A DNA stretch of 15,309 nucleotides from a virus. Its lineage: Duplodnaviria; Heunggongvirae; Uroviricota; Caudoviricetes. The stretch lies in IMG/VR virus record IMGVR_UViG_2540341028_000008; one strand, written 5' to 3'. Below, one piece after another: positions 11,201 through 14,200 of the stretch (positions within the stretch are counted from its first letter, which is position 1; every line of letters starts with the position of its first letter). Position numbers: made by a program.

Positions 11201-14200
11201 ACCACAAATGGCGCAGGATAAATTAAGACTTCATGAAAACCATCCAGCCATTCCAGTCCTAACTCCAGAACGGGTAGGCAAAATAGAAGTGCTATCCGGC
11301 AGCTTCTTAATGAATCCAGTTCAAAGCCCTGTAAAGGAACAAGCCGCTTTTGCTGTAAAAAACGTTCGGCAAGAGTGACTAATTTGCTTTGTTCCTGTTC
11401 CGTCAGACACGTTAAAAGGGGGATCGATAGTGCTTCCTGCCAGGGAAGGGCAGTTTGATGTGCTGATTCTTGTACTTTCCAGGGCCACTTAATCATCGTT
11501 TTGCTCGCAAACTCGTCACTTGAACAAAATTGCACGGACAGGGACTGTTAAAATGCCAAATTTCCTGGCATCATGGCAACCATCTGAACGGAGAGATGCC
11601 GGAGCGGCTGAACGGACCGGTCTCGAAAACCGGAGTGGGGGCAACTCCACCGGGGGTTCAAATCCCCCTCTCTCCGCCAAAATTCAATCACTTATACATC
11701 ATTAAGTCAGTGACAAAAATCACACGTGGAATTACTTGGAATATTTTCAGGTAACGGGACATCAAGTGTCGGTGAAACTTTAACCTTCCTGTCATAGATT
11801 AGCACTTGCCCCTCGGTTTTGTGACCAGAGAAAAGTTGCTTATCCCGACTGCTTCCTTCATAGTCTGAAATTCCTTTCGCCTTCAGATCATGAAAGGTGA
11901 AGTCGGTTAAAATACCTGAAATTTTGCCTGCGCGATTTCTTGCTTCTACCCACATTTCGTTAAAGCCTTTGTACATATATCGGTTGCCGTATTGATTGCT
12001 GATTACATAGGCGGATGTTGGTAACTGTTTTGCTTTTTCGATCGCCGCCTGTAATCGTGGACTCCATGCTTTTATCTGTTTTTTTCCTGTTTTCCCTTGC
12101 TGGATAAAGATCCCGTCGTTTCCAATCTGCTCCCATTTCAGCGATAACACATCGGAAACCCTCGCTGCACACAGATAGGCAATTTCCATTGCGATAAAAA
12201 CAGGAAGAGGTGCAACGCTTAATACTGCCTGGTATTCTTTGTCGGTTACATATCGTTCGCGGTTTTTGGCCTTGAATTTACTTACACCTGCACATGGGTT
12301 AGCCTTCACGTACCCTCGCTCATACCCCCAACTGTAAACGCGGGACTTCATGGTTGGCTTGCGTTTTACTCTGTTCCCCTCTCTTGTCCATGTATCGACG
12401 GATGTGTTCTGGTTTTATGGAATCTGCCGGCACCTTACCGAATACGGCAAGCAACTTTTTTGATGTTGCAGATAATCTTTTTGTGTTCTTGGACTGAGGT
12501 CACTGTAATAGGCGCTGGCGAGGAATTTTTCCCACAAGCGACCGAATGTCATTGCACGATCGCGATTATTTACAGTTTCCTCATACTTTTTCCATAAAGC
12601 AGCTAAACCATCCTTGATGGCGGTTAGTGTTACAGATTCGCTGGATGTTGGTTTCCATACATAACTATATTTATTTGGGTATACATTTGGAGGTAATTTT
12701 TCGTGCTCAGGATTTTTCCTTCGTCTTCCCATCAGATCGCACCAAAATTCGGCTCTACCTCGCGTGGTGGTAAAGTTTTATTGCAGGTAATAGATCCCGG
12801 CTGACAATCGGTTTGCCACTACGATTGGTATAGAACGGAAGCTCGTTTTCCATTAACCATTTTCGCTGGTGGCTTGCATATTTGCAGCCCGTTAATATTA
12901 GCAATTCATCTTCGGTTAAAAATAAGCTGCTCATAGCTATATCTCATAACCGCCGCTAACTATATACGGTTAGCGGCAATTAGGGTTGAACATTAAAAAT
13001 CAGCCTGACTCGGGATCAGTTTTTGCCAGATAGCTGAAACGTATTTTGCCTGGTAACGAGCGTCATCAAGTGCATTATGGCGCTCACCTTCGAATGGAAT
13101 AGCCGTTCTGGCATCGAAGTCTATGGCTTTCCCCAGCTCAACGATTGTGCGTACATCGCGATCGTTGTAGTAACGCCACGGGCAGGGGATCCCCTGCCGT
13201 TCGTATGAACGGCGCAAAATCGTGTTGTCGAAGTTGGCTCCATTTCCCCAGACCTGAACAAAAAATTCACCGGAGTTTTCGTCGATAAATTCCCGCAATT
13301 GTAACAGTGCATCATCTAACGGGATTTCATCGGTCATAATGGCAGATTGCGCTTCGCGTGATTGCTTAAGCCACCATTTAATGGTGTCCCGATCAATGAC
13401 TCCGCCAGCAGTTTCCAGATCGATAGTCTTACTAAATTCGGGTCCCATATCTCCGGTTTGCGGATCGAAAAATATTGCACCTATTGAGATGATCGGGGCA
13501 TCAGGATTTTTTCCCATGGTTTCAAGGTCGATCATTAGATGGTCACACGTCCTGCTGGTGGATGTGATTTCGTGATGACCATTCACCGTAATTAAGGGAT
13601 CTGCCGTCTCGCCAGTTTTACTATCGCTGGCGTGGTCCTGAGCGCTGCCAGCATTCTCCTTGTGTGGATGTTCAGCGCCTTCCATTTCCTCCGGATCATT
13701 TTCCTGAACTTCAACCTGATTCTCTTCATCGAATGTTTTCTGGTATGTTGCGTCGTCCATCACCGCGCCACAATCAGGGTAGTTGCCGCCACCGCTCTGA
13801 CCGCAGGCGGTGCAGACTTTTTCCGGTTCCTGTTGCGCTACTGGTTCGGATTGTTTCGTTTCTGGCTCGTTTTGTAACGCATTTTGAACCGCCCCGGGTT
13901 TCCTGGAGAGTGTTTTATCTGTGAACTCAGGCTGCCAGATCATCGTTTCCGATGGAAGCATAATAAGCTTTTTCTGCTTCTGCCGGAGGGATGTGGCCCA
14001 GCCTTTCCAGCAATCGTCGATTATTATACCAGTCCACCCACGTGAGTGTGGCCAGTTCCACTTCTGCACGGTTTTTCCAGCTCTTACGGTGTATTACCTC
14101 CGCTTTGTAAAGACCATTGATGCTCTCCGCCATCGCGTTGTCATACGAGTCGCCTGTACTTCCTGTTGATGCCAGTAATCCGGCTTCCTTAAGCCGCTGT

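Follow-up and report, generated by a model that had tools for sequence, protein, structure and literature searches.

Insertion sequences of the IS3 family can activate neighbouring genes: the means described, with IS911 and IS2 as examples, are an outward-facing −35 element in the right inverted repeat and hybrid or complete outward promoters (PMC9330008). The locus described here resembles these cases in that the right end of an IS3-family element faces downstream coding sequence; it differs from them in that the flank provides no correctly spaced −10 element and no promoter match exceeds chance. IS629 is also associated with adjacent deletions of "type d", IEE/transposase-dependent events in which a large adjacent segment is lost and IS629 itself is left intact (PMC9330008). 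Here, too, an intact IS629 without a target duplication adjoins a truncated gene, although the same arrangement would also follow from recombination of one IS629 copy with another.

A comparable locus is present in O157:H7 TW14359 (ECSP_RS11165 / ECSP_RS11150). There, an IS629-type element (named IS1203 by PGAP), oriented as here, interrupts a paralogous RecE-N/DEDDh exonuclease, and again its exit frame is in frame with the 3′ part of the gene, which in that case retains 464 native codons; PGAP treats the remnant as a pseudogene missing its N-terminus, as it does at the analogous locus of 2013C-4830. Unlike the present case, the O157:H7 element is a simple insertion at another point, with the 5′ half of the gene still present on its other side, and its isoform (95.8% identical to the copies described below) carries a stop by which the GTG start is lost.

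Two further systems bear on the enzyme itself. Stand-alone PF16473 exonucleases and T4 DexA (PDB 8KEL) share with it the predicted fold, the catalytic pentad and a full-length match to the profile, whereas in the present case it belongs, as the C-terminal module, to a phage protein of 813 aa and survives only as a remnant. RecE (exodeoxyribonuclease VIII of the Rac prophage) is similar in its early-left operon position, between xis/int and dicB-type genes, and has a homologous N-terminal region (PF06630) and linker; the catalytic domain here, however, is of the predicted DEDDh (3′-5′) type, in contrast to the PD-(D/E)XK 5′-3′ nuclease of RecE. The C-terminal nuclease domain of RecE works without its N-terminus too.

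The subject of this report is a 358-codon open reading frame (ORF) in the window, as the whole 15,309-nucleotide stretch analysed is called here, that begins inside an IS629 copy and continues into the 3′ part of such an exonuclease gene. Our analysis favours, with good though not complete confidence, the view that this ORF arose by accidental fusion at the margin of a prophage remnant eroded by IS elements and is an ordinary IS-truncated pseudogene; on this view it reflects the usual decay of Shigella genomes and is no new gene. Objects of this type (IS-truncated prophage pseudogenes whose frame runs into the IS) are already well known, and this instance is already in GenBank, where it is not flagged as a chimera.

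IS629 copies and the hybrid reading frame

The window contains two copies, in inverted orientation, of an element that we take to be IS629 (Table 1); they differ by one base, at position 3144. A repeat finder reported 1311 nt of shared sequence against 1310 bp for the element proper, because one flanking base matches by chance. Each copy is bounded by imperfect 25-bp inverted repeats (92% complementary, beginning TGAACCGCCCCGGG) and encodes overlapping orfA (108 aa) and orfB (296 aa) products with HTH_21 and rve domains; an ALIL pseudoknot, the signal for programmed −1 frameshifting, scores 116 bits in both. A copy carried by the S. boydii Sb227 plasmid matches them with 100% identity. The element is an IS629-type member of the IS3 family, and every feature tested for was found except a target duplication for copy 2.

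Table 1. Coordinates of the features discussed, in positions of the window.
Feature	Position	Strand	Basis or remark
IS629 copy 1, inserted in yeeJ	3112..4421	+	duplication CTTC
87-aa exit ORF of copy 1	4237..4500	+	
tRNA-Ser (cga), prophage attachment site flanking the remnant	11590..11679	+	
Prophage tyrosine integrase, split	11707..12732	-	
DUF4224 (excisionase-position) gene	12755..12934	-	shortened to 59 aa
Hybrid ORF, 358 codons, GTG start	12993..14069	-	ORF list and translation
Exonuclease 3′ remnant, RecE-N-like/DEDDh	12993..13884	-	nt 1551-2442 of 2442
Rv2179c-like DEDDh 3′-5′ exonuclease domain (predicted), complete	13026..13541	-	profile, residues, predicted fold
Catalytic D336	13062-13064	-	
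Catalytic H331	13077-13079	-	
Catalytic D281	13227-13229	-	
Catalytic E183	13521-13523	-	
Catalytic D181	13527-13529	-	
Codon 97, TAC (Tyr) replacing motif Cys	13779..13781	-	
IS629 copy 2, 1310 bp	13885..15194	-	25-bp imperfect inverted repeats, no target duplication
IS629 orfB, rve/DDE integrase core	13927..14817	-	3′ end overlaps start of hybrid ORF
ALIL pseudoknot, copy 2	14743..14859	-	copy 1 equivalent 3447-3563 (+)
IS629 orfA, 108 aa	14814..15140	-	frame of the exit ORF; coordinate arithmetic
IS1 interior adjoining IS629 copy 2	15196..15309	.	not exonuclease sequence

The two copies have different histories. Copy 1 entered yeeJ by simple insertion: the tetranucleotide CTTC stands on both sides of it (3108-3111 and 4422-4425), and when the copy and one CTTC are taken out, the yeeJ frame is restored and runs on for 233 further codons. 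Copy 2 has no target-site duplication (its flanks read ATTT and GGCG) and is followed on its far side by the interior of IS1, and therefore marks the junction of a rearrangement rather than the site of a simple insertion. We considered that the segment between the two inverted IS629 copies had been inverted and rejected this for copy 1, given its intact duplication and the healing of yeeJ on its removal; the order of the genes between the copies is also that of E. coli.

A first-pass annotation had described a 358-aa chimera running from IS629 copy 2 into an exonuclease gene. The ORF is present on the minus strand, in a mechanical list that contains 61 window ORFs of at least 60 aa, mostly non-genic, and translation bears out both the passage through the IS end at 13885 without a stop and the overlap with the 3′ end of orfB in another frame. 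Several particulars had to be revised. The start does lie inside copy 2, but its codon is GTG (14069) and not ATG; the in-frame IS contribution is 61 rather than 60 residues (codons 1-61), codon 62 (CAA) being shared between IS and flank; and the native portion is indeed exonuclease, but of 296 codons rather than 298 (codons 63-358, equivalent to N518-F813 of an 813-aa prophage protein), so that what had been called a gene is just the last 36% of one. The GTG is located 143 nt ahead of the orfB stop, within translated orfB and in the orfA frame. The same 61 residues also begin the 87-aa ORF that leaves copy 1, as had been noted, and are followed there by 26 codons antisense to yeeJ and a stop.

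The three frames that exit the right end of IS629 are open for 69, 18 and 10 codons. Because a single frame of the three is open over a long distance, an in-frame join would arise by chance in about one case in three, and the join observed is no more than chance would give.

The truncated prophage exonuclease

An intact counterpart is found at the same locus of E. coli FDAARGOS_944, in the order yeeJ, tRNA-Asn, mtfA, tRNA-Ser, integrase, DUF4224 and a 2442-bp gene annotated "exonuclease"; beyond it are DUF1482, dicB and ydfC/B/A, which constitute the early-left arm of a lambdoid prophage. The same exonuclease gene is carried by induced and sequenced phages, at 96-97% identity. Its 813-aa product contains PF06630 (RecE-type N-terminal region) at residues 57-189 and PF16473 (Rv2179c-like DEDDh) at 632-803, with a linker (chimera residues 65-161) that aligns to positions 507-603 of NF007259, the RecE model. 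This linker alone accounts for the match of the remnant to the model, at 135.3 bits against an equivalog cut-off of 1269; by this profile comparison the remnant is not a RecE equivalog.

Over the retained part, identity to the intact E. coli gene is 99.9%; the first 1550 nt and the native promoter are missing, and the 517 residues so lost very probably have a part in the biological role of the intact protein. A single residue distinguishes the remnant from the intact E. coli allele, a change from Cys to Tyr at codon 97 (TAC), outside the DEDDh domain. The site is the third Cys of a linker motif, C-x2-C-x7-C-x2-C, and is occupied by Cys in 116 of the 123 homologs fetched; Tyr is found in just the 7 sequences with this allele. 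The neighbouring genes are also damaged relative to the intact E. coli locus: deletions of 11 bp and 1 bp divide the integrase into ORFs of 105 and 214 aa, and a 1-bp deletion shortens the DUF4224 product from 67 to 59 aa. The full gene of this allele is frameshifted in one other Shigella-type assembly and internally deleted in another. Judged by its sequence, the locus is a decayed prophage remnant.

Within the remnant, PF16473 matches chimera residues 177-348 with 229.2 bits (cut-off 27), over model positions 2-177 of 177. The three Exo motifs had been described as intact, and they are: all residues of the D-x-E of Exo I, the D of Exo II and the H-x4-D of Exo III are present. The five catalytic residues listed in Table 1 (D181, E183, D281, H331 and D336) map respectively to positions D3, E5, D103, H153 and D158 of an alignment of 49 sequences (48 homologs at 39-50% identity and the domain from the window), in which the first four are among the invariant columns and the last is conserved in at least 90% of sequences. 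AlphaFold2 modelled the 180-aa domain, with 49 diverse sequences as input, at a mean pLDDT of 94.9 and a pTM of 0.89; the whole chimera, with 18 near-identical homologs, reached a mean pLDDT of 32, too low for interpretation. The closest structures to the domain model in Foldseek are T4 DexA (8KEL, TM 0.76), RNase T and oligoribonuclease (probability 1.00), and DexA is also the single solved structure found by a sequence search. Profile, residues and predicted DnaQ-like fold together assign the remnant to the Rv2179c-like DEDDh family.

An exhaustive search of 1.84 billion representatives returned 7915 relatives at E ≤ 1e-10; at 40-50% identity the majority are stand-alone proteins, 170-200 aa in length, with the domain beginning at residue 5. 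The catalytic domain may thus plausibly be autonomous, as its model and these relatives suggest. The possibility had been raised that the intact enzyme needs N-terminal residues absent here; for catalysis, the evidence from the family predicts no such need. The completeness of the DEDDh domain, with its single residue change outside the domain, was counted against a pseudogene reading, as was the existence of many homologs that are stand-alone proteins of the size of the domain.

Expression signals and alternative readings

The first-pass annotation had also suggested that the outward-facing start could drive expression of a truncated nuclease, and had proposed a search for promoter elements inside the IS upstream of 14069. 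That search yielded nothing exceeding chance. Consensus promoter scans cannot prove absence, and with this proviso a strict scan for sigma-70-like sites on both strands of 12800-15309 found none, against 2.3 expected; a lenient scan of the minus strand gave 5 weak sites against 6.2 expected, with no promoter-like site well placed upstream of 14069. The best lenient match, located downstream of the GTG, combines a perfect TATAAT (14023-14028) with a poor −35. A hybrid promoter of the IS3-family kind was not detected either, in that neither scan gave a site spanning the IS/flank junction; the site nearest to the junction (GTTACA-17-AACAAT, 13878-13850, 8/12) falls wholly in the flank.

Signals for translation are similarly poor. 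The Shine-Dalgarno (SD) energy at GTG 14069 is −3.9 kcal/mol, compared with −7.1 for orfA, and RNA folding around this codon shows no structure beyond that of shuffled sequences (z = 0.47). The sole GGAGG of the hybrid ORF is badly spaced, 2 nt before ATG 13685, and candidate starts overall have a weak or poorly spaced SD sequence. ATG 13943 is located 14 nt upstream of the orfB stop, where reinitiation could occur in principle. Low-level translation from ATG 13943, or from ATG 13685 after the GGAGG, is conceivable and was counted against a pseudogene reading. Minus-strand sequence from the transposase genes to the remnant contains no terminator-like site; weak read-through from the promoter of the IS itself is therefore conceivable. 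With promoter matches at or below chance, a weak SD sequence and a GTG inside orfB, the idea of an outward-facing start that drives expression gains no support.

Conservation and database records are consistent with this outcome. In the O157:H7 isoform the exit frame meets a TAA nine codons beyond the GTG, which shows that the leader derived from the IS is not conserved. The full 358-aa product, with V or M as its first residue, has no exact match among about 15 billion proteins, and none of the best 120 of 2230 matches covers more than 83% of it. Shorter versions (316, 322, 255 and 230 aa) have been annotated as proteins by gene callers: the 316-aa form, starting from M43, is EFW60873.1 of Shigella flexneri CDC 796-83 ("enzyme; Degradation of DNA"), and the 322-aa form is WP_094096501.1 ("3′-5′ exonuclease"). 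Judged as a gene, the chimera fails on promoter, ribosome-binding site and frame conservation. Literature searches on Rv2179c with prophage and on IS-derived in-frame fusion proteins found nothing relevant, and one on an IS629 outward promoter found a general review alone and no demonstrated outward promoter.

The strongest competing explanation, though an unlikely one, is that the remnant is expressed. Transcription would come from read-through of the IS629 transposase genes or from a weak promoter, internal or hybrid. Translation would start at GTG 14069, at ATG 13943 through coupling to termination of orfB, or at an internal ATG (13685 or 13535), and the predicted product would be an active DEDDh exonuclease truncated at its N-terminus. 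The complete domain with its confident model (pLDDT 94.9) and Foldseek matches headed by T4 DexA and RNase T, the intact catalytic residues and the frequency of stand-alone homologs are all in keeping with an active product; a source of transcripts might be sought in the open minus strand at the IS end, in the perfect TATAAT in spite of its poor −35, or in the outward −35 by which right ends of IS3-family elements activate neighbours (PMC9330008). These points are set against promoter-like matches at or below chance, the weak or badly spaced SD sequence of every candidate start, and the OrfAB frame itself, which is rarely translated because a frameshift is required; in addition, the neighbours are decaying and a conserved Cys has been lost. 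A small amount of active nuclease is possible, since the domain is intact and autonomous in relatives. The further step, that the C-terminal DEDDh module has been kept as a nuclease in its own right by means of IS629 read-through and ATG 13943 or an internal ATG, we regard as improbable.

More doubtful still is the proposal that selection has kept the exit frame of IS629 open, as a built-in N-terminal leader for the capture of coding sequence downstream. The frame runs for 69 codons without a stop and is that of orfA, and in-frame joins to 3′ parts of exonuclease genes are seen both here and in O157:H7. Two such joins, however, have a chance of about 1/9, and the O157:H7 isoform carries its stop nine codons into the proposed leader; the peptide itself is Trp- and Lys-rich, is out-of-frame sequence and matches no family, and the exit ORF of copy 1 ends after 26 codons.

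Least credible is a draft-assembly artefact in which a collapsed IS repeat was misplaced, a suspicion that a draft contig with two near-identical 1.3-kb repeats and repeats at contig ends might raise and that we reject, because an independent S. flexneri assembly (GCA_014284525.1) carries the same junction, identical base for base, on a contig of 9617 bp (exactly the 9463 bp between the IS copies, flanked on either side by 77 nt of IS), and the 316-aa form is present in 4 S. flexneri UniRef entries. The junction is thus real. The 32-nt junction sequence has no match in GTDB species-representative genomes, and the identical junction is absent from complete E. coli genomes.

Proposed origin and significance

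For the preferred reading, an accidental fusion at an eroded prophage, we infer both an order of events and a lack of expression. A lambdoid prophage would have integrated at tRNA-Ser, beside mtfA and yeeJ, bringing with it an early-left-operon exonuclease of 813 aa in which an acidic linker, bearing a Cys4 motif, connects a RecE-like N-terminal region to the DEDDh domain at the C-terminus. A rearrangement associated with IS629 would then have deleted the first 1550 nt of the gene, the native promoter and the remaining prophage; either an adjacent deletion or recombination between IS copies is envisaged, because copy 2 lacks a target duplication and has IS1 on its other side. The event would have left the right end of IS629 against codon 518, the join happening by chance (about 1/3) to fall in the frame that is open for 69 codons to that end. 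The outcome would be a mechanical ORF extending from a GTG inside orfB to the stop codon of the exonuclease, the product of which is most likely not made in meaningful amounts.

The biological weight of the fusion is small. The expansion of IS elements in Shigella is known to have left many truncated genes, and one in three correctly oriented IS629 joins is expected to extend the frame of a remnant into IS629. Its practical value is for annotation: EFW60873.1 and WP_094096501.1 carry the chimera as an ordinary protein, and a pseudogene label would be preferable in public records, because their first 19-25 residues are out-of-frame IS629 sequence. If the remnant were expressed, it would provide a modest example of IS-driven liberation of a domain. 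If the nuclease had been retained, IS629 would have turned a large phage recombination-type exonuclease into a small 3′-5′ exonuclease kept by the host in this S. flexneri/S. boydii lineage.

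The exonuclease linker and the chimera in public records

The linker of the exonuclease carries a C-x2-C-x7-C-x2-C motif, which lies in a stretch homologous to RecE positions 507-603 and is kept across the E. coli homologs; the four cysteines possibly form a zinc knuckle. The Shigella allele in the window has tyrosine in place of the third cysteine.

Two public records (EFW60873.1 and WP_094096501.1) treat the chimera, the IS629-derived N-terminus joined to the exonuclease remnant, like any other protein and give it a length of 316 or 322 aa. Out-of-frame IS629 sequence supplies the first 19-25 residues of these annotated forms. 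The start of the 322-aa form coincides precisely with base 1 of a 9617-bp contig and is therefore dictated by the contig boundary.

Other disruptions of the exonuclease gene

Full-length genes with the Tyr allele were identified in two further assemblies, one (SRR1811645) broken by a 5-nt indel and the other (ERR592178) lacking about 70 internal nt around nt 1500-1567; several independent events have therefore inactivated the exonuclease gene.

In E. coli O157:H7 TW14359, IS629/IS1203 has independently interrupted a paralogous exonuclease of prophage origin. The IS629-type element has the same orientation as in the window, and here too the reading frame that is open across its right end joins the 3′ part of the exonuclease in frame (464 codons in TW14359). 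In the protein collection, a related partial form of 348 aa (P0063) is the representative of 2220 member sequences.

yeeJ and the prophage remnant

Features and coordinates (window positions unless stated)
Feature	Coordinates	Details
Phage morphogenesis DNA	1-2459	portal fragment, head-tail connector, head closure, HK97-gp10, gp17 tail completion
Junction with yeeJ	about 2459/2460	1-2459 versus 2460-3111
Stop of healed yeeJ frame	2407	within phage-derived sequence
Prophage integrase and DUF4224 gene	11707-12934	adjoining tRNA-Ser
Linker Cys motif	13734-13781	chimera residues 86-100
IS1 interior	15196-15309	at contig end
TW14359 insertion (NC_013008.1 2154115-2161824)	2713-6497 of locus	IS629/IS1203

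The yeeJ gene is broken twice in the window, by IS629 copy 1 and, in its 3′ part, at the junction with the phage morphogenesis DNA, to which E. coli prophages are 99% identical. Removal of the IS and one copy of the CTTC duplication gives a healed frame of 2187 codons. IS629 copy 2 has the IS1 sequence directly against its left end; nested or side-by-side IS elements of this kind are typical of Shigella.

The integrase has two deletions (11-bp and 1-bp) and the DUF4224 gene one (1-bp); since both are frameshifted, the prophage remnant is unable to excise by its own functions.
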